Source of the DNA: a virus
Virus genome (UHGV): UHGV-0123901
Strand: one strand, 5' to 3'
DNA: 30,503 nt
A program made the position numbers and the translations under genes. The notes under the pieces were generated by a model that was not told where the DNA came from, did no database searches, and was given only the letters and a program-made list of their open reading frames with translations. Below, piece by piece: positions 5,162-26,874 of this stretch (within the stretch, counting starts at the first letter, position 1; each line of letters begins with the position of its first letter).

Positions 5162-6352
5162 TTAATTGCTGTTAACCGAGGTGACCAGATTTGCCAGGTA
5201 TTTATCGGTAATACGCTGGCGCAGGGTCAGGTTTTCGAGTGGAGGCACCGGTGTATAGTCGTAGTCGATATACAGTTTTCCGGCCTTAAGGGTTTCCGCA
5301 TCGTTGGATTCTTCGCTGAACCAGCAGGTTGCATCCACGATATAGCCGTTTGTTTTCAGCTCACGGAATTTGGCATTGATGCCGTCAACGATGTCGCGAA
5401 TCAGCGTTGCGGTGATGGGCTTGTCCACCGCCCACATGTGCGCCTCAGCCATCGTGTCGGCCAGCACCTGCGCGGTACGGGTGTAGTTTTCAAAGAGGAA
5501 CAGCGGGTCATCAGAGCAGGTACGGTTACCCCAGAATCGGAAACCGTCACGGCGAATCAGCGTGGTGACGCCTGACTCGTTAAGCAGGTCAGCATCGGTG
5601 CCGGACTCCTGCAAATCCCAGAATACAGATGCGCTGATGCCGGTAACACCGTTCACCCCGACGTTGGACAGCGTTTTATGCCAGCCCTGCTCCTGGTCGA
5701 TTTTAGCGCGCAGCCCCAGCGCACGAGCGGTGGCATACGCGGTGGCGGTGGTACTGGTGACCGTATCCCATGCGAGGAAATCCGGCCAGATGACCATCAG
5801 CTCACGCTGGCTGAAATTCTGGCGGTAGGCTTTCACCTCGGAAATGGTTTTACAGCCCCATGCGCTGATATACCCGAAAGCGCGCAGCTTCTGACAGACT
5901 GATGCCAGTGCAACCGCCACCTCTTTGGTGTCCAGTCCCGGCACACCGAGAATACGCGGTTTAACACCGGTAACCGACTCCGCCGCCAGCAGGGCTTTTA
6001 GTCCGGTGTACTGACCGTTTTCGTCGGTGGTGCCGATGATATTGGAAACGGTCTGCGCAAGTTTCGTTTCCTCGTCATCACCGGTGCCGTCCTCCACGCG
6101 CACAACAACGGTGACCGGTTTTGACTGGTCGGCGATAGCCTGCAACGATGCCGCCAGAGTGCCTTTTTTACCGGCCTTTGCAATTGCGCTCTGCACATTG
6201 GTAATCAGCACCGGTTTATTGAGGGGGAAGGTTTCCGCATCCGCATCGCTGGCCGTGCAGACCATGCCAACAATGGCAGTGGATACGGTGGAAATGACGC
6301 GGGTGCCGTCGTTAATCTCCAGCACCTGCACGCCGTGATGATAGTCACTCAT
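5162..6352 (-). CDS. FI: contractile tail sheath protein (P2 gpFI-like)
   Basis: 396-aa ORF at the head of the FI-FII-E-T-U-D block. Confidence 0.9.
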   Translation of the reverse strand: MSDYHHGVQVLEINDGTRVISTVSTAIVGMVCTASDADAETFPLNKPVLITNVQSAIAKAGKKGTLAASLQAIADQSKPVTVVVRVEDGTGDDEETKLAQTVSNIIGTTDENGQYTGLKALLAAESVTGVKPRILGVPGLDTKEVAVALASVCQKLRAFGYISAWGCKTISEVKAYRQNFSQRELMVIWPDFLAWDTVTSTTATAYATARALGLRAKIDQEQGWHKTLSNVGVNGVTGISASVFWDLQESGTDADLLNESGVTTLIRRDGFRFWGNRTCSDDPLFLFENYTRTAQVLADTMAEAHMWAVDKPITATLIRDIVDGINAKFRELKTNGYIVDATCWFSEESNDAETLKAGKLYIDYDYTPVPPLENLTLRQRITDKYLANLVTSVNSN

Positions 6353-20377: not shown

Positions 20378-21411
20378 TGAGCAAGAAAAAAGGGAAAACA
20401 CCGCAACCTGCGGCAAAAAAAATGACCGCCAGCGCCCCGAAAATGGAGGCATTCACCTTTGGTGAGCCGGTGCCGGTACTCGACCGCCGTGACATTCTGG
20501 ATTACGTCGAGTGCATCAGTAATGGCAGATGGTATGAGCCACCGGTCAGCTTTACCGGTCTGGCAAAAAGCCTGCGTGCTGCCGTGCATCACAGCTCACC
20601 GATTTACGTCAAACGCAATATTCTGGCCTCGACATTTATCCCGCATCCGTGGCTTTCACAACAGGATTTCAGCCGCTTTGTGCTGGATTTTCTGGTGTTC
20701 GGTAATGCGTTTCTGGAAAAGCGTTACAGCACCACCGGTAAGGTCATCAGACTGGAAACCTCACCGGCAAAATATACCCGCCGTGGGGTGGAAGAGGATG
20801 TTTACTGGTGGGTGCCGTCCTTCAACGAACCGACAGCCTTCGCGCCCGGCTCCGTGTTTCACCTGCTGGAGCCGGATATTAATCAGGAGTTGTACGGCCT
20901 GCCGGAATATCTCAGCGCCCTTAATTCTGCCTGGCTGAATGAGTCGGCCACGCTGTTCCGCCGAAAGTATTACGAAAATGGCGCACATGCCGGATACATC
21001 ATGTACGTCACCGATGCCGTGCAGGATCGCAACGATATCGAAATGCTTCGCGAAAACATGGTGAAGTCGAAAGGCCGCAACAACTTTAAAAACCTGTTTC
21101 TCTACGCCCCACAGGGGAAAGCCGACGGCATTAAAATTATCCCGCTCAGTGAAGTGGCAACGAAGGACGATTTTTTTAATATCAAAAAAGCCAGCGCCGC
21201 TGACCTGCTTGACGCGCACCGCATCCCCTTTCAGCTGATGGGTGGCAAGCCGGAAAACGTCGGGTCGCTGGGCGATATTGAGAAAGTGGCAAAGGTCTTT
21301 GTCCGCAATGAGCTTATCCCGCTACAGGACAGGATCCGCGAGATAAACGACTGGCTCGGTCAGGAGGTCATCCGCTTTAAAAACTACTCACTGGACACTG
21401 ACAACGGCTGA
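20377..21411 (+). CDS. Q: portal protein (P2 gpQ-like)
   Basis: 344-aa ORF adjacent to cos. Confidence 0.9.
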   Translation: MSKKKGKTPQPAAKKMTASAPKMEAFTFGEPVPVLDRRDILDYVECISNGRWYEPPVSFTGLAKSLRAAVHHSSPIYVKRNILASTFIPHPWLSQQDFSRFVLDFLVFGNAFLEKRYSTTGKVIRLETSPAKYTRRGVEEDVYWWVPSFNEPTAFAPGSVFHLLEPDINQELYGLPEYLSALNSAWLNESATLFRRKYYENGAHAGYIMYVTDAVQDRNDIEMLRENMVKSKGRNNFKNLFLYAPQGKADGIKIIPLSEVATKDDFFNIKKASAADLLDAHRIPFQLMGGKPENVGSLGDIEKVAKVFVRNELIPLQDRIREINDWLGQEVIRFKNYSLDTDNG

Positions 21412-21415
21412 ACAT

Positions 21416-21439
21416 CGCCGCCTGCGGGCGGCTTTTTTA
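21416..21439 (+). terminator. intrinsic terminator downstream of Q
   Basis: GC hairpin cgccgcc-tgcg-ggcggc followed by a run of six T. Confidence 0.6.
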
Positions 21440-21580
21440 CATCCCGTCATCACGCCCTCACACGCTCACCACCGCACAAAACAGCCCGCAGGCAAACCAA
21501 CGCCTCAACGGACAGACTAAGCGCCGTCACGACGCGCTGAGACGCTGAAAAAATAAAATCAGCACCACCGCCAGCGCGCA

Positions 21581-21599
21581 GTGCTTTCCCCGCCTCGCC
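21581..21599. other. cos cohesive-end site (P2-type 19-nt)
   Basis: gtgctttccccgcctcgcc is the exact reverse complement of the P2 cohesive end GGCGAGGCGGGGAAAGCAC as I recall it; located beside Q as expected. Confidence 0.85.
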
Positions 21600-21674
21600 C
21601 GCCCGCTTCGTGGAGCGGTTTTAATGCAGTTGTATAACGACGCAGACTTCCTGACAGTTCTATCTACTCATAAC

Positions 21675-21699
21675 AAAAAAAAGCATTACAGATGAATGC
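21675..21699 (-). terminator. possible weak intrinsic terminator at the end of the cargo operon
   Basis: On the minus strand, a 5-bp stem (gcatt/aatgc) followed by a run of eight T, about 50 nt after the stop of the 266-aa gene. Confidence 0.3.
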
Positions 21700-21748
21700 A
21701 AAATCATGCAACTAATGAAGGCGTACAGGCTAGGTGAGAAAATAAATG

Positions 21749-22549
21749 CTATTTCATCAGTCCTATAAAAGCTGCTGTCATGCTACCCAATGCACCAATA
21801 GCAGCAAATAACGTTGCCCAAAACATGCTTTTTTGGCTACGAATATTCTCATTATATCGTTGTTCTTCATTATTGAAGTGATTTAACGTATTAATTGCTT
21901 TTCCGGTGGGCTTATAACCATCTCGAGTCTTTGAAATGTCCCCACTCTCTACAAGGGAATCCAGACATAAGCGAAGTTCTTTTATGAGTCGAGAATAATC
22001 ATCATGGTAGATCCATAAACGTCCTGCCACATCATTCATAATTAGAGTCTCCCTGAATGGTTTTTCCCCTTGCTGCTCTCGATAAATTCTGACAATTGCA
22101 GCCAATACCGTCATTACATCAGTTATCTCCTGCTTGCGTTGTCGATACAAATACTTCTCACGACTTAGCTTTTTATTTTGACGATCCGCTATTCTTCTAA
22201 ATCTAAGTACATTAAAATAAGATAAATCATCCAATGAGTCAAACTTCAATTCATGCGCATGATAATAATAAATTCCAGAAAAGGAATTTGATGTAAGTCG
22301 TTCTGGTTTAAGAATTGTATCAATATTGAAAGTTTTATTCTGATGACTCCACTTCTTAACCTTTATAATTCCGTTTGAATAACTATCAAAAAGATAGTCA
22401 TTACCCTCATCATCCTTAATGTAAACGGAATACATATCGTAATGAATGGCACTCTCATACATTAAACTAATTCTGCCATTTTCAGGAGTCTTCTTTGACT
22501 CAAAAACTTTCAGAAACTTTACAACATCAACTTTATTTTTATGCCTCAT
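21749..22549 (-). CDS. hypothetical protein with single C-terminal hydrophobic helix; candidate effector of the RT module
   Basis: 266-aa ORF in AT-rich cargo DNA, 165 bp downstream of the RT gene on the same strand; C-terminus MFWATLFAAIGALGSMTAAFIGLMK; no domain recognised by eye. Confidence 0.6.
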   Translation of the reverse strand: MRHKNKVDVVKFLKVFESKKTPENGRISLMYESAIHYDMYSVYIKDDEGNDYLFDSYSNGIIKVKKWSHQNKTFNIDTILKPERLTSNSFSGIYYYHAHELKFDSLDDLSYFNVLRFRRIADRQNKKLSREKYLYRQRKQEITDVMTVLAAIVRIYREQQGEKPFRETLIMNDVAGRLWIYHDDYSRLIKELRLCLDSLVESGDISKTRDGYKPTGKAINTLNHFNNEEQRYNENIRSQKSMFWATLFAAIGALGSMTAAFIGLMK

Positions 22550-22714
22550 ACATTCAGCCTTGACTGTAAACCACCATATTAAATGATTGCACTAACGACT
22601 CGTACTACTTATTGTTCAACCCAGTCAGAACTGAAAGCAAACTTTTGCACTAACTGGGTTGCCATCATAATATATCGATACTAATAAAATCCGATATTAT
22701 TATATTTTAGTGTA

Positions 22715-23665
22715 TTAAACCGATGTATTTGCTTTCAACGTCAATACTTTCGATCTATAACGTTTTTCAATAACCCCCATTGAATATAAACGACCAAATA
22801 ATTTCTTTGCTGTTCTTGTATCTTTAGCTTGTTCTACATCTTTTATTATTTTCCAAAGCTCTATTTCTCTAGCCATAAGATAATGCTGTTCGTTCCTAAC
22901 CTTTAAGCTATCCCCAAATACTATAACTCCTGTCACTAGTTTAGGCTTATCCCCAGCATATAATTTCGTTTTAGTTGGATGCATAGCGTGTCCATGCTTA
23001 TTAATAATCTTACGAATCACGCTGCAAAACAATCGATTTACATTATCTCCAGAAAAAGTAAGATCATCGACATAAACTGTCATTTTCACACGAAACTTCT
23101 CACAAAGTTGATTCATTTCATCAAACATTCTGGAATTTGCAAAATATGCTAATGGCATACTAATCCGACTACCCGTTGGCAATCGTTCATGACAGGTACA
23201 TATATGAGATAAAATATCAGCCACATCTGGCGACATTTTCATTATTGAGAAAAAGAAAGAAAATATCATTTCTCTTGTTGTTGACGGAAAAAAAGATCTA
23301 ATATCTGTAGTCATCAACTTCTGATGATTGAGATGTGCTTTAGCATTTGTTATGTTAGAGCAACTTTTTTTACCAGAGTGTAAATATTCGGGCATAGCTA
23401 TACGCAATAATAAACTCGCAATACGTGTATGCACTACATCTAATTTTTCTAAAGGCTTTTGTATTTTCCGTATTTTATTTTTTTTAGAAAGCTGTTCAAA
23501 AATAGAGTAATTACCCTCATCCCTTTTCAAAACTGATAGGTCATTGATACTAACGCAGAGCAAGCTAGCCAACTTTTTTTTACTTTTAAGTTTATAAAGT
23601 GGCGAATCCGTAATAGGATAAGATTTATTTTTAGTTGAAACCTTCAGCTTAATCCTTTTTTTCAT
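22715..23665 (-). CDS. reverse transcriptase, retron-type
   Basis: 316-aa ORF with NAKAH...DIRSFFPS (NAxxH and finger motifs), LPTGSRISMPLAYFAN (motif B-like), VYVDDLTFSG (YxDD catalytic motif C) and KLVTGVIVFG (the VTG triplet typical of retron RTs). Confidence 0.85.
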   Translation of the reverse strand: MKKRIKLKVSTKNKSYPITDSPLYKLKSKKKLASLLCVSINDLSVLKRDEGNYSIFEQLSKKNKIRKIQKPLEKLDVVHTRIASLLLRIAMPEYLHSGKKSCSNITNAKAHLNHQKLMTTDIRSFFPSTTREMIFSFFFSIMKMSPDVADILSHICTCHERLPTGSRISMPLAYFANSRMFDEMNQLCEKFRVKMTVYVDDLTFSGDNVNRLFCSVIRKIINKHGHAMHPTKTKLYAGDKPKLVTGVIVFGDSLKVRNEQHYLMAREIELWKIIKDVEQAKDTRTAKKLFGRLYSMGVIEKRYRSKVLTLKANTSV

Positions 23666-23963
23666 TTCTTTTACTTACCCACTCTAGTATATCCAGAACT
23701 TTCCCTGCCAGTTTTAAACGTAAACTTTTGGATAATCGTCCTTGTGTCCCTAATGATTCTGAAAAAAAGACCAAAGAGGATACTGGCATGTCGAAATGGG
23801 AAGCATAACGCTGTAAAATATCAATCGACGGCACCCATAGTCCGCTTTCAATCTCTACTATTCTGCTTTTTGGAATACCTAAAGATGATGATAAGTCAAC
23901 TATTGATTCTTTATGGTATTGCCTTATTAAACGAAGGGCTTTATGCAACATAGGCAACTCCAT
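23649..23963 (-). CDS. XRE-family helix-turn-helix protein, translationally coupled to the RT gene
   Basis: 104-aa ORF with HTH signature SIVDLSSSLGIPKSRIVEIESG; its stop overlaps the RT start by 17 nt. Confidence 0.6.
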   Translation of the reverse strand: MELPMLHKALRLIRQYHKESIVDLSSSLGIPKSRIVEIESGLWVPSIDILQRYASHFDMPVSSLVFFSESLGTQGRLSKSLRLKLAGKVLDILEWVSKRNEKKD

Positions 23964-23987
23964 CTTGTTGAAACTAGGGAGGACGCA

Positions 23988-24143
23988 TTACTCATCTCCC
24001 CCTTCAAAGAAGTCAACTGCGCGAGTGATCCAATAAAGTAGTCTAATAAGCCACTTAATTACACCCCAAGCGTTAGGAGTCTTCTTTTTCCGGTTTAACT
24101 TGTTTTGCGCCTGCTGTTCGTTGGTTACTTTATCATTTTTCAT
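23988..24143 (-). CDS. small hypothetical protein (51 aa) with hydrophobic segment; may instead be non-coding
   Basis: AAGGAG RBS 6 nt before the ATG (MKNDKVTNEQ...), hydrophobic AWGVIKWLIRLLYWITRAV; a longer 97-aa upstream extension seems less likely. Confidence 0.3.
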   Translation of the reverse strand: MKNDKVTNEQQAQNKLNRKKKTPNAWGVIKWLIRLLYWITRAVDFFEGGDE

Positions 24144-24245
24144 GATCTGCTCCTTATGTCCACGGTGTGCAAACGATATGTCTGCTCCAGCACCATGGCT
24201 CGCCCTCATAAGGATGAGATTGAACAGCACCAGCTCCCTGCTCCA

Positions 24246-24272
24246 CGAACCCTTTGTCGCCCAAAGGGTTCG
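24246..24272. repeat. perfect 11-bp stem hairpin (cgaaccctttg / caaagggttcg, 5-nt loop)
   Basis: Read directly; not followed by a T-run on either strand, so not an obvious terminator. Confidence 0.5.
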
Positions 24273-24585
24273 AATACCCATACGCTATGCCGCGTGAATC
24301 AGAGACTCCTGTCGCTGACAGAGGCGTTGCGCGGGGTAAATGTTAGAAAGCATTAGCTTTCCACGGGCAATAAATACCCAATTGATGGCGATTTATCTCA
24401 CTAACTAACCAATGATTGAATCATACCAAGTAAACCGTTGTATTTGATCTCTCCTTATATAATTTTTTGTTATTAAACAACATAAATGAATAACAAAATG
24501 AAATAAAACTAATCTTCATCCGTCTCATCACAAGAAATATCAACAAATCAAGAATATCGTTTGATTATCTAGTCTTTCCAATTCA

Positions 24586-26874
24586 TTAAAATAAAAACAA
24601 TGCTTCATCTTCAATTCCCGGCCAAACATCAGCAACCGGATACGTGAATTTTTTCCCGTCATAATTTACAGTTGCTCCACGCGCCAGCGCCTCAAGTTCC
24701 CATCGCTGCGGCCTGATACCGTTCTGAGCAAGGTCAACGCGGATACGGGTAATTTGCATTCGTTCCGACCGGGTCAGCCTGGCTGATGGAGCTATTTCAT
24801 GCGGTTTTAACGGGCTTCCGTTTCTTTGCTGACGGTTTGGTGTTCTCAGGTCGTGTTTTAATGCGCCCCTGAGCGCCCTCACGACCTCCGGGTCATTCCA
24901 TTCGATAACACCATCATCAACCAGATTAAGCACTGCTGCGGCGTGCTCAGAAGGCGTGGGAGCCGGTAACGAAGTATCACCACCGGTGAGCTTTCCACAG
25001 TTATTGACAGGACTCCGAGGCGCGGCGATGCCGCTTTTTAAAGTCAAAGGCTCCACGACCGGAACTTTCGGCACAATGCGCCAGTCCGTCGTTCTGGTGA
25101 TATGAATATGACGCGCGCCGAGATGTGGCGCGTAAATGCCGACCACTCTCTCGACTTCTTCCTCGTACTCGTTAACTTCATCCGACGGGCTACGGGCGAC
25201 TCTGACAGTCTGGCAATCGCGCGGAACGTTTGCCCCACCCTGCGCACTGATATACAACGCAAAATCGCCACTGTCTGCGGCAGCGCGTGCAGCCTCGACG
25301 CGTTCGTCAAACTCATCAGCAATGCTGACGCCGCGAGGCAATTTGCGTAGTTCACGGTAAGCCCCCATTGTCGGCAGACCAACCGTTTTAAATTGCGGGA
25401 TGCGCCACGTTGACGCCCATGCAGTAACAGCCGCGGCAGTATCTTTCAGAGGTCTGCCGGTATCGTTATCGAGCTGACCATCCAGTGCATAGCCGTCGAT
25501 GTTTTTTGAGATGTATTTCGCGATATACCCCGCAGCACCGCCCCGATTAAGGTGTTTTGCCTGAAAACGGTTTCGCGCGGCTCCTCTTTCGTCGCCATCC
25601 TCTTTGAGCGCATAGCGACGCATGATTTCAATAATCTGGTTACGCTGGCGTGGATTACAAAAAAGCATCATATGCCAGTGCGGCGTTCCGTCGTGGTGTG
25701 GTTCAACAACACGCAAACCGTAGACCTGTAAATCATTATCCTTGAATGCCGTGCGCATCAGGCTCCAGATACGGCAGAGATAACGCTGCGCATCCTTTGG
25801 ATTAAATGCCTCATCGTTCCAGCCGTGATTAAGCTGCACGGTTTTACTTTCGCCTTTTCCGACCTGACGTGTCGGGTGATACTTTGACGGCGCGGTCAGC
25901 GTGATAAACATCCCCACATCACCCTCTGCAGCGGCGTAACGCTCAATACCGGCAATGGTGTTCATCAGCTCCATCCGGCGAATTTCAGGATTAGAAATAC
26001 TTCCCATCACCTTACTGATAAGGTCGATGCGCTCGCCGGTTTCCCTGTTTTCAAGGTCACACGATTTAAGAAATTCCAGATTTGCCTGGCGGCGTGCACG
26101 CACATCACGAATGGCATGTTTACTGGCATAAGGAGAACGGTCTTTATTGACTTCCCCGACAGCTATCAGTAACGCCTCATGCCAGCGCATACGCTGGCCT
26201 TTAAGCTGATGAGTCCACCACTCATCGTTAAACAGACGGGCAATGGCAGAATATGCCTGCCTCGTGGTCATCTGCCCTTTACGGTATTTTTTCCAGTAGA
26301 GAGGGGAAATATTGAAAGCACGTGCAGCGCCAGCAACATGACCATACAGGTGAGCCTGCGCCTCATCCGTAAACAGCGATTCTTTTTCGCCATGCGCATC
26401 CACCCAGGCATCGCTGAGTTCCTCATACATCATGAAAAGCTGCGATGAGATACGGGCAGCAAACTTTTTCAGCTCCTTGTCATTCATTCCCGGCAGGCGC
26501 GCATAGTGGTCACGCTCTGCCAGAAACAGTAACGACGCGTCGGTGTTCATTTCATGGCGCTGATTCACACGCTCAATGCGCGGCCATAAACGACGCTGAA
26601 AAGTGGATGTGAGGAAATAAAACCCGTGCACCGGGCTTTTATTGCGCCGGATGTAGTCATAGCGTGAAGTAAACAGCGAGCGCAAAAAGTAAGGCAGGCG
26701 GTTAATCGTGGATAAAACACCTTGCACCTGACGCATCTCGTCACGTGTAAGGGGTCTTTCGCGCCCGACAGCCTCGCGTGGCGCGTTCCATGCATAAGCA
26801 CCGGTAAACGCCTTACCGGTGCCTGCGGCAAATGCTGACGGAGGGACAAAACGCCCGGAGGCTTTAACGGCCAT
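24586..26874 (-). CDS. A: rolling-circle replication initiator (P2 gpA-like)
   Basis: 762-aa product starting MAVKASGRFVPPSAF (internal start of the 776-aa ORF), matching the P2 A N-terminus. Confidence 0.9.
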   Translation of the reverse strand: MAVKASGRFVPPSAFAAGTGKAFTGAYAWNAPREAVGRERPLTRDEMRQVQGVLSTINRLPYFLRSLFTSRYDYIRRNKSPVHGFYFLTSTFQRRLWPRIERVNQRHEMNTDASLLFLAERDHYARLPGMNDKELKKFAARISSQLFMMYEELSDAWVDAHGEKESLFTDEAQAHLYGHVAGAARAFNISPLYWKKYRKGQMTTRQAYSAIARLFNDEWWTHQLKGQRMRWHEALLIAVGEVNKDRSPYASKHAIRDVRARRQANLEFLKSCDLENRETGERIDLISKVMGSISNPEIRRMELMNTIAGIERYAAAEGDVGMFITLTAPSKYHPTRQVGKGESKTVQLNHGWNDEAFNPKDAQRYLCRIWSLMRTAFKDNDLQVYGLRVVEPHHDGTPHWHMMLFCNPRQRNQIIEIMRRYALKEDGDERGAARNRFQAKHLNRGGAAGYIAKYISKNIDGYALDGQLDNDTGRPLKDTAAAVTAWASTWRIPQFKTVGLPTMGAYRELRKLPRGVSIADEFDERVEAARAAADSGDFALYISAQGGANVPRDCQTVRVARSPSDEVNEYEEEVERVVGIYAPHLGARHIHITRTTDWRIVPKVPVVEPLTLKSGIAAPRSPVNNCGKLTGGDTSLPAPTPSEHAAAVLNLVDDGVIEWNDPEVVRALRGALKHDLRTPNRQQRNGSPLKPHEIAPSARLTRSERMQITRIRVDLAQNGIRPQRWELEALARGATVNYDGKKFTYPVADVWPGIEDEALFLF

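Follow-up and report, generated by a model that had tools for sequence, protein, structure and literature searches.

A locus with the make-up of a Type VI retron in the gpA-gpQ hotspot of a P2-family prophage

Genes of the retron locus

The viral genome UHGV-0123901 was analysed as one stretch of 30,503 nucleotides (nt), called the window here, and the subject of this study is a segment of its minus strand, 22715..24430, that is almost certainly a Type VI retron, complete over that extent. The locus has four parts, a structured RNA, a small protein (SP) whose coding sequence lies within that RNA, a helix-turn-helix (HTH) protein, and a reverse transcriptase (RT); they lie in that order, and the fold of the RNA is conserved. 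The same order, structured RNA, SP, HTH protein, and RT, has been described for the Type VI operon in two preprints (10.1101/2025.10.22.683967; 10.64898/2026.04.27.721009). The parts are as follows.

22715..23665, minus strand: retron RT of 316 amino acids (aa), placed in Type VI (RT clade 3); open reading frame (ORF) with its ATG at 23665 and its stop at 22715, YVDD box intact
23649..23951, minus strand: Cro/C1-type HTH protein of 100 aa; match to HTH_VI, carries the conserved Arg7
23988..24143, minus strand: SP of 51 aa, predicted toxic effector; ORF with a ribosome-binding site, in a conserved position
~23967..24413, minus strand: predicted hybrid RNA (hyRNA) of ~450 nt; an msr-msd-like part, the SP coding sequence, and a 3' tail, with approximate ends

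An earlier sequence-only reading of the stretch had proposed a retron-type RT of 316 aa at 22715..23665, with no strand named, and the ORF was found there on the minus strand with every motif that had been quoted for it; the opposite, plus-strand reading of the interval is riddled with stop codons. The motifs occur in order: NAKAH at residues 107-111, DIRSFFPS at 121-128, LPTGSRISMPLAYFAN at 162-177 (PTGS at 163-166), YVDD at 198-201, and KLVTGVIVFG at 242-251 (VTG at 244-246). They also hold on alignment, since N107, A108, H111, D121, F125, S128, P163-S166, Y198-D201, T245, and G246 are invariant in a comparison with 18 homologues whose identity goes down to 47%. The NAxxH motif and the VTG triplet are established marks of retron RTs.

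By its score against the PADLOC profile RT_VI, the protein falls in the Type VI group of RT clade 3. That profile matches residues 21-306 with 350.6 bits (E = 1.4e-105) over positions 1-278 of 279, and the runner-up, RT_III-A, has 150 bits and is 200 bits behind, with RT_V at 75 bits. The best 25 of the 40 PADLOC matches are retron RT models, every one, and there is no DRT (defence-associated RT) or Abi (abortive infection) model among those 25. All 11 solved structures that match by sequence, including Ec86, Kva2, Ec67, Ec83, and Ec78, are likewise retron RTs, so the call of a retron-type RT stands, and the best match is not to a group II intron, Abi, or DRT family. Pfam gives the generic RVT_1 alone (32.6 bits, above the Pfam cutoff). 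In NCBIfam no family reaches its cutoff: the retron St85 model has 105.9 bits against a cutoff of 235, and the other matches below cutoff are to the retron TIR and Ec67 families and to Drt3a, which is the sole non-retron match (22.5 bits against a cutoff of 200).

RTs of the DRT, Abi-P2, and AbiK kinds are usually longer and have extra C-terminal domains. The RT in the window, with 316 aa, has no C-terminal extension domain, and its NAxxH and VTG, both specific to retrons, are conserved. A defence RT of the UG (unknown group)/Abi or DRT class, for example Abi-P2, would fit the history of the site, where an RT of the Abi-P2 type was the first to be described (Odegrip et al. 2006, as relayed in PMC9122126), and would fit the single generic match in Pfam; however, the lead of RT_VI among the PADLOC models, the one distant DRT match in NCBIfam, the size of the protein, and its retron motifs led to its rejection, and it is given next to no probability. 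The RT is read here as that of a Type VI retron, and a second class of retron was also considered. A Type IV retron combines a Type IV RT with a membrane protein of two transmembrane segments just downstream of the RT or overlapping it. This identity was rejected as well: the RT matches RT_VI and not RT_IV, and the downstream protein has one hydrophobic segment, lies 165 nt off, and is not conserved with the RT.

The long form of the HTH ORF (23649..23963) encodes 104 aa and overlaps the start of the RT gene by 17 nt. Its start is most likely the ATG at 23951 rather than 23963, because that ATG has GGAG 6 nt upstream and the HTH_VI profile of PADLOC, which matches at full length (105.8 bits, 2.5e-31), begins at residue 5 of the long ORF; the RefSeq annotation of the gene is also the 303-nt version. 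The protein's N-terminus, MLHKALRLIRQYH, resembles MIHRALRLIRQYH of a Vpa2-like locus from Vibrio parahaemolyticus (L092, compared below), and Arg7 of the 100-aa protein is the counterpart of the residue mutated (R7D) in Retron-Vpa2. Type VI retrons were defined by a clade-3 RT accompanied by a Cro/C1-type HTH protein of 91-110 aa upstream or overlapping (Mestre et al. 2020, PMC7736814). Since the overlapping HTH-RT pair is this defining arrangement and both proteins match Type VI profiles end to end, the suggestion in the sequence-only reading that the locus may be a variant or a new architecture is unsupported. The neighbourhood on which that suggestion drew was also incomplete, as it left out both the structured RNA and the SP gene that lie upstream of the HTH gene.

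SP is polar and basic in its N-terminal half, contains a Trp-rich hydrophobic helix (about residues 25-40), and ends in an acidic tail, FEGGDE. AAGGAG lies 7 nt upstream of its ATG (24143), the protein matches phrog_15287 at full length (1.1e-34), and RefSeq has the same coding sequence, labelled a hypothetical protein, in a genome with 99.3% identity to the window over the hotspot cargo. When ~90 related loci were fetched for comparison, nearly all of ~80 related loci proved to have an equivalent ORF of 45-65 aa, placed 25-60 nt upstream of the HTH gene. A longer ORF of 97 aa (23988..24281) was rejected as a gene: it is the SP ORF extended upstream, its first 46 codons cross the structured RNA and have no ribosome-binding site, and its last 51 codons only (from 24143) are conserved. 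A small accessory protein upstream of the HTH gene was present in a subset of the original Type VI dataset (Mestre et al. 2020, PMC7736814), and SP is the toxin in both Retron-Vpa2 (10.1101/2025.10.22.683967) and Retron-Sen3 (10.64898/2026.04.27.721009).

Fold and elements of the hybrid RNA

The 491 nt upstream of the HTH gene have a fold that beats 100 of 100 shuffles (z = -4.43). In the predicted hybrid RNA, the 3' tail pairs back to the 5' region. The elements of this RNA, all on the minus strand, are given here from the 5' end.

24420..24428, minus strand: putative extended -10 element TGgTATGAT, read from the sequence; transcription start placed near 24413
24395..24399 with 23970..23974, minus strand: closing, a1/a2-like long-range helix (helix 1), 5' arm GAGAU and 3' arm GUUUC
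24387..24391, minus strand: 5' element UCGCC (in AUCGCCA), reverse complement of both downstream GGCGA repeats
24345..24380, minus strand: two short msr-like hairpins, UGGGUA/UGCCCG and GGAAAGC/GCUUUCU (helices 2 and 3)
24277..24335, minus strand: variable long stem-loop, predicted main part of the msd (DNA template), between conserved CCC and GGG anchors (helix 4)
24246..24272, minus strand: conserved 11-bp hairpin CGAACCCUUUG-GGCGA-CAAAGGGUUCG (helix 5), predicted template of the 5' stem-loop of full-length multicopy single-stranded DNA (msDNA)
24256..24262, minus strand: 7-nt repeat 1, GGGCGAC (GGCGA core 24257..24261), in the loop of the 11-bp hairpin
24234..24238 with 23977..23981, minus strand: inverted repeats IR1 (GGGAG) and IR2 (CUCCC) (helix 7), IR2 just after the SP stop codon
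24222..24229 with 24112..24119, minus strand: UGCUGUUC with GAACAGCA (helix 8), the partner being SP codons 9-11 (E-Q-Q)
24207..24214 with 24151..24158, minus strand: anti-Shine-Dalgarno segment UCCUUAUG with CAUAAGGA, the SP ribosome-binding site (helix 9, predicted)
24199..24205, minus strand: 7-nt repeat 2, GGGCGAG (GGCGA core 24200..24204), in an unpaired junction beside the anti-Shine-Dalgarno helix; proposed landing site of the msDNA loop
23977..23986, minus strand: post-stop tail, IR2 CUCCC (23977..23981) and GCGUC (23982..23986)

The fold was examined in a 17-sequence alignment of the hybrid RNA of relatives, which includes the Vpa2-like locus L092 and to which the pairing figures in this section refer. 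Its consensus has 68 pairs, of which 31 show compensatory changes. Once the anti-Shine-Dalgarno helix is included, the structure has 71 pairs and 93.1% of cells are paired; sliding the 3' partners by 1-3 columns lowers this share to 38-52%. Of the 71 pairs, 34 have changes on both sides, against 9-20 when slid. For this 71-pair structure, none of 500 shuffles matches any of five measures.

Support differs from helix to helix. Closing helix 1, whose GUUUC arm sits just upstream of the ribosome-binding site for the HTH gene, is paired in 98.8% of cells and shows one-sided A/G variation only, with no compensatory change; a canonical a1/a2 pairing and a branching G were sought by eye, and only this 5-6 bp GAGAU/GUUUC closing helix was found. 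The two msr-like hairpins are paired in 97.0% (helix 2) and 97.5% (helix 3) of cells, with 4 and 2 compensatory pairs, and the conserved 11-bp hairpin of helix 5 in 93.1%, with 4 compensatory pairs. Between them, the variable stem-loop has 59 nt in the window and 49-109 nt in relatives, each of which folds the region into a single long imperfect hairpin, the sequences being unrelated. In Retron-Vpa2, a stem-loop at the matching position is where Spacer-seq mapped the msDNA (10.1101/2025.10.22.683967).

The long-range helices 1, 7, 8, 13, and 14 join the non-coding part, the SP codons, and the post-stop tail, and are paired in 97-100% of cells. Helix 7 is paired in 100%, has 2 compensatory pairs, and shows A-U, G-C, and G-U at one position; because IR1 pairs with IR2 past the SP stop codon, the SP coding region is enclosed. 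The adjoining GCGUC (23982..23986) pairs with GGCGC (24107..24111) in SP codons 11-13. Helices 7, 13, and 14 (97-100% paired) have double changes at three pairs in 6-7 sequences. Helix 8 has 8 pairs, is paired in 100% of cells, and has 3 compensatory pairs, and distant relatives keep this pairing of non-coding RNA with SP codons using wholly different sequences, CUGCCAAAA with UUUUGGCAG. As a separate observation, an EQQAQ/DQQ peptide motif near the N-terminus of SP (codons 9-13) overlaps two of these covarying RNA helices (24112..24119 and 24107..24111, each with a non-coding partner); since the helices coincide with the motif, its conservation may be imposed in part by RNA structure and not by protein function.

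The helix that would cover the SP ribosome-binding site, helix 9, is paired in 85.7% of cells and has 3 compensatory pairs, and in 12 of the 17 relatives this upstream segment is also the partner of the site in the lowest-energy fold. For the two 7-nt repeats, four residues of repeat 2 (G210, C212, G213, and A214) are invariant in the alignment, and both repeats covary across lineages as GGCGA, GACGA, GGUGA, and AGCGA. In the 5' element, the CG and CA of the AUCGCCA block are invariant.

Upstream of the RNA, a CTTGnTATGAT block is kept among enterobacterial relatives in an alignment, and from its sequence the TGnTATGAT part is plausibly an extended -10 element with a transcription start near 24413. 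A palindrome over this putative element, ATGATTCAATCAT, was considered and is read as chance, because it is not kept in relatives. Distant Type VI loci have a different feature: one or two TTCGC-N5-GCGAA palindromes (for example TTCGCTATTTGCGAA) lie by a TTGACA -35-like box, ~250-330 nt upstream of the SP start, in L009, L012, L014, L016, L018-L020, L022-L024, L027-L029, L036, L043, L049, and L052, and are absent from the window and its enterobacterial P2-borne relatives. They resemble operator sites, which the HTH protein may bind.

The prophage hotspot and the gene downstream of the RT

The retron lies between the replication gene gpA and the portal gene gpQ of a P2-family prophage, which agrees with the earlier claim of cargo in such a prophage. 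The flanks are of P2 type, with a terminase (Terminase_5/6N/6C domains), the portal, and the replication protein GPA (413 bits), and GC content, which is 53-58% in the phage core, drops to 31-37% in the cargo. The gpA-gpQ locus, next to cos, is a variable defence hotspot of P2 phages, with retrons among its listed cargo (Rousset et al. 2022, PMC9122126). The site, between replication gene A and portal gene Q, is the same as in the reference phage P2, but that phage has old and tin there, whereas this prophage has a Type VI retron and an unrelated 266-aa membrane protein.

The membrane protein belongs to the second part of the neighbourhood in the sequence-only reading, which had listed an HTH protein upstream of the RT and a tail-anchored protein downstream. 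The HTH ORF does overlap the RT gene and the downstream product does have a C-terminal hydrophobic segment, but the downstream gene is, from its distribution, separate hotspot cargo and not part of the retron. Seven related retron loci were read in detail for the gene that follows the RT, and in all except one it differs from the gene in the window or is missing.

21749..22549, minus strand, window: 266-aa membrane protein, ORF 165 nt downstream of the RT gene
Escherichia coli O157:H7, retron 82% identical, downstream of the RT: three other small ORFs
Klebsiella and Enterobacter, downstream of the RT: 143-aa protein on the opposite strand
Serratia, downstream of the RT: none
Yersinia, downstream of the RT: unrelated 246-aa protein on the strand of the retron
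Dickeya, downstream of the RT: QatABCD island

A new retron architecture with this 266-aa tail-anchored protein as its effector, or as a second one, is improbable. The gene is on the same strand, 165 nt after the RT gene, and a scan found no terminator-like site between them; the predicted structure includes a winged-helix domain as well as a membrane anchor, a combination in keeping with an effector or a sensor; and a homologue with 38% identity (L003:5389-6162, plus strand) lies just after a Type VI retron, RT 74% identical, in Acerihabitans arboris, in a conjugative element (VirB8, CagX/VirB9, TrbL/VirB6) and not in a P2 prophage. This juxtaposition of two rare families is a caveat to the reading of the gene as separate cargo. 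Beyond the variable gene content after the RT in E. coli O157:H7, Klebsiella, Serratia, Yersinia, Enterobacter, and Dickeya, however, the family itself is mostly found without a retron. It is small (29 clusters) and confined to Enterobacteriaceae, and among its 57 loci a retron is upstream in the window haplotype and L003 only; in ~30 of the 57 the neighbour is a 243-aa protein with a hydrophobic N-terminal stretch, and in at least seven the gene stands straight after gpA with nothing else. The copy in the window is 72% identical to retron-free copies and just 38% identical to the retron-linked copy of L003, which argues against co-inheritance of the gene with the retron. In the published cases, SP, the HTH protein, and the RT alone make a Type VI retron complete (10.1101/2025.10.22.683967). 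The protein has a single hydrophobic stretch at its extreme C-terminus (residues 244-265), no match in PADLOC or Pfam, and no match in a protein search of a phage record collection, and no trace of a remnant of the 243-aa partner gene was seen in the window. In the spacer between the RT gene and the 266-aa gene (22600..22660, minus strand), there is an inverted repeat of 8 bp, AACCCAGU...ACUGGGUU, whose loop is ~25 nt long and which has no T-run after it; it might be a boundary left by cassette recombination.

The same retron occupies the same hotspot in prophages of Klebsiella, Serratia, Yersinia, and Enterobacter and in sequenced peduoviruses. The block formed by RNA, SP, HTH protein, and RT is present in 100 of 5,426 complete E. 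coli genomes (~2%), in at least three allele groups by identity to the window: at least 98% in 10 genomes, ~82% in 29, and ~78% in 61. All these copies are chromosomal, and every copy whose flanks were read is in a P2-family prophage. None of them is labelled as a retron; the RefSeq labels are "reverse transcriptase family protein," "helix-turn-helix," and "hypothetical protein," and the toxin gene and the RNA have no functional label.

Individual loci vary. In E. coli strain E2 (L001, NZ_CP195953.1), the hotspot cargo corresponding to 21412..24585 of the window is 99.3% identical, and RefSeq calls the RT gene (locus 5304..6255) a frameshifted pseudogene, with SP and HTH genes intact. If SP is a toxin that the RNA and the HTH protein keep in check, a strain that loses the RT would have a disarmed system but would not be killed. 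In Dickeya (L089/L090, 6227..10923), the same Type VI retron is outside a prophage, in a chromosomal defence island beside a QatABCD operon (KAP NTPase, QatB, QueC-like, and TatD).

Relation to characterised retrons and the proposed switch

Among Type VI retrons, phage defence dependent on RT catalysis and SP has been shown for Vpa2, Eco12, and Sen3 (10.1101/2025.10.22.683967; 10.64898/2026.04.27.721009), and Vpa2 and Sen3 offer different models for the locus in the window. In Retron-Vpa2, the RT, the HTH protein, and a three-armed hybrid RNA form a complex, and defence requires RT catalysis; the DNA product is undetectable at rest and accumulates with phage recombination functions or with mutation of the HTH protein (10.1101/2025.10.22.683967). 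The msDNA has a 5' stem-loop of 23 nt, and a 7-nt direct repeat occurs twice, first in the msd loop and again in the riboregulator. Translation of SP requires the full-length 86-nt DNA, whose 5' stem-loop is the complement of the 7-nt repeat, and the model in which repeat hybridisation relieves repression comes from the discussion of Zhang et al. (10.1101/2025.10.22.683967). Retron-Eco12, a Type VI retron of E. coli related to Vpa2, defends against lambda-vir from its native promoter, and its DNA is also undetectable at rest (10.1101/2025.10.22.683967). The retron in the window is likewise a Type VI retron of E. coli, and Eco12 may be one of the E. coli alleles of this retron family.

Comparison with Vpa2 was made through the V. 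parahaemolyticus locus L092, which is probably Retron-Vpa2 itself. Its SP of 55 aa has K15, I39, F43, and F45 and thus fits every descriptor published for the Vpa2 SP, and R7 is present in its HTH protein. It is called Vpa2-like here because its RT box is YVDD where the preprint has YADD. The operon has the order seen in the window: a hybrid RNA with embedded SP is followed by the HTH gene and an overlapping RT gene, R7 of the HTH protein is conserved, and the window RNA aligns with that of L092 nucleotide by nucleotide, with an alignable fold and 7-nt repeats in the msd loop and the riboregulator. The SPs, of 51 and 55 aa, are both basic in the middle, have a hydrophobic helix towards the C-terminus, and finish with GGD(E/T); their relationship is read from position and composition and not from sequence. 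The two loci differ in the msd, which is unrelated in sequence, in the repeat core, which is GGCGA in the window and GACGA in L092, and in location, a P2 prophage hotspot in one and, in the other, the chromosome beside hipA-like and rpoD/dnaG genes.

The locus is probably a complete Type VI retron, an abortive-infection system against phages carried as P2 hotspot cargo, and it is somewhat more likely than not to work as Vpa2 does. What would trigger it, the toxicity of SP, the DNA product, and the switch are modelled on the homologues, and the use of the msr-msd-like RNA as the RT template is taken over from Vpa2. A promoter near 24420 would drive the hybrid RNA of ~450 nt, with the HTH and RT genes coming next. 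At rest, the RT, the HTH protein, and the hybrid RNA would be held in a complex in which the HTH protein restrains reverse transcription, and SP would stay untranslated with its ribosome-binding site paired to the upstream anti-Shine-Dalgarno segment. Phage recombination functions, or functions that inhibit RecBCD, would let RT-made single-stranded DNA of ~90 nt build up, its predicted template in the window being 24246..24335. The 5' stem-loop of this DNA, complementary to the 7-nt repeat, would pair with repeat 2 beside the anti-Shine-Dalgarno helix, and the ribosome-binding site would be freed, SP made, and growth of the infected cell stopped.

Retron-Sen3 offers another way for the same Type VI retron to work, with constitutive single-stranded DNA and constitutive translation of SP, the HTH protein as antitoxin, and release of the toxin on loss of RecBCD. 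In Sen3, a Salmonella retron of the cl2075 lineage, DNA products of 112 and 145 nt are made constitutively, SP is controlled after translation, and the HTH-SP toxin-antitoxin pair surveys RecBCD (10.64898/2026.04.27.721009). This mode has been shown for an enterobacterial Type VI retron (Garcia-Rodriguez et al., 10.64898/2026.04.27.721009), and there are likenesses to the window: the HTH-RT pairing and the SP-HTH-RT order are identical, the SP coding sequence is in a structured transcript flanked by the long-range IR1 and IR2, and Sen3 has its SP ribosome-binding site buried in the folded RNA, as is predicted for the window. However, the SP of Sen3 has 79 aa with an N-terminal extension of ~25 residues, and those of the cl2075 lineage have 75-79 aa (10.64898/2026.04.27.721009), whereas the SP in the window has 51 aa and is near the 55-aa Vpa2 SP. 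The window RNA also aligns with that of the Vpa2-like locus and has the 7-nt repeats and the anti-Shine-Dalgarno helix, both covarying, and the Vpa2-related Retron-Eco12 of E. coli has no detectable DNA at rest (10.1101/2025.10.22.683967). Because Sen3 differs in its constitutive DNA and HTH-SP pair and its 79-aa SP is of another lineage, the Vpa2 mode is favoured: a translational switch of that style is somewhat the likelier by analogy, and control as in Sen3 is possible but clearly less so.

Several observations weigh against a Vpa2-like mechanism or against the RNA elements on which it would depend. Sen3 itself shows that Type VI retrons vary in mechanism. The RT in the window is just 52% identical to the Vpa2-like RT, which in turn departs from the preprint in its YVDD box, and the match of the two SPs is not significant (14.7 bits by profile). 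For the RNA, an Rfam scan of 21000..25000 at E up to 1 gave no match, so that a family for Type VI retron RNA is absent from Rfam; the -10 element, which was assigned by eye, was not returned by the generic promoter scan; and the stability of the msd stem is at the level of shuffled sequence (z about -0.9). With the window sequence alone, the pairing probability of the ribosome-binding site is 0.64 and the lowest-energy fold picks another partner, so its occlusion is a prediction of moderate confidence for this sequence taken by itself.

The RNA may hold one more component of a switch. UCGCC near the 5' end complements both repeats exactly, and its sequence is thus that of the loop in the msDNA 5' hairpin. 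Of 37 loci, 21 have an exact 5-mer triple with each member where it is expected; when the 5' region is shuffled, the mean is 7.8 and the maximum 15. The triple shifts in concert, as UCGCC/GGCGA, UCGUC/GACGA (the Vpa2-like locus), UCACC/GGUGA (five loci), and UCGCU/AGCGA (one locus). Two repeats and no third element are mentioned in the parts of Zhang et al. that deal with them (10.1101/2025.10.22.683967). It is tentatively suggested that the hybrid RNA holds a three-part switch and not just two repeats. The 5' element could be a built-in RNA stand-in for the msDNA, and might keep either the riboregulator repeat or the msd loop switched off for as long as it is not displaced; alternatively, its role might be to place the template for priming.

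The system is of a known kind, and no new kind is added by this analysis; its practical value is the annotation of a native E. coli Type VI retron that has gone unlabelled. Type VI is the retron group whose DNA product turns the toxin on and does not keep it off, and a native E. coli copy, with a short template stem of 59 nt and many natural variants, should help to dissect this switch.

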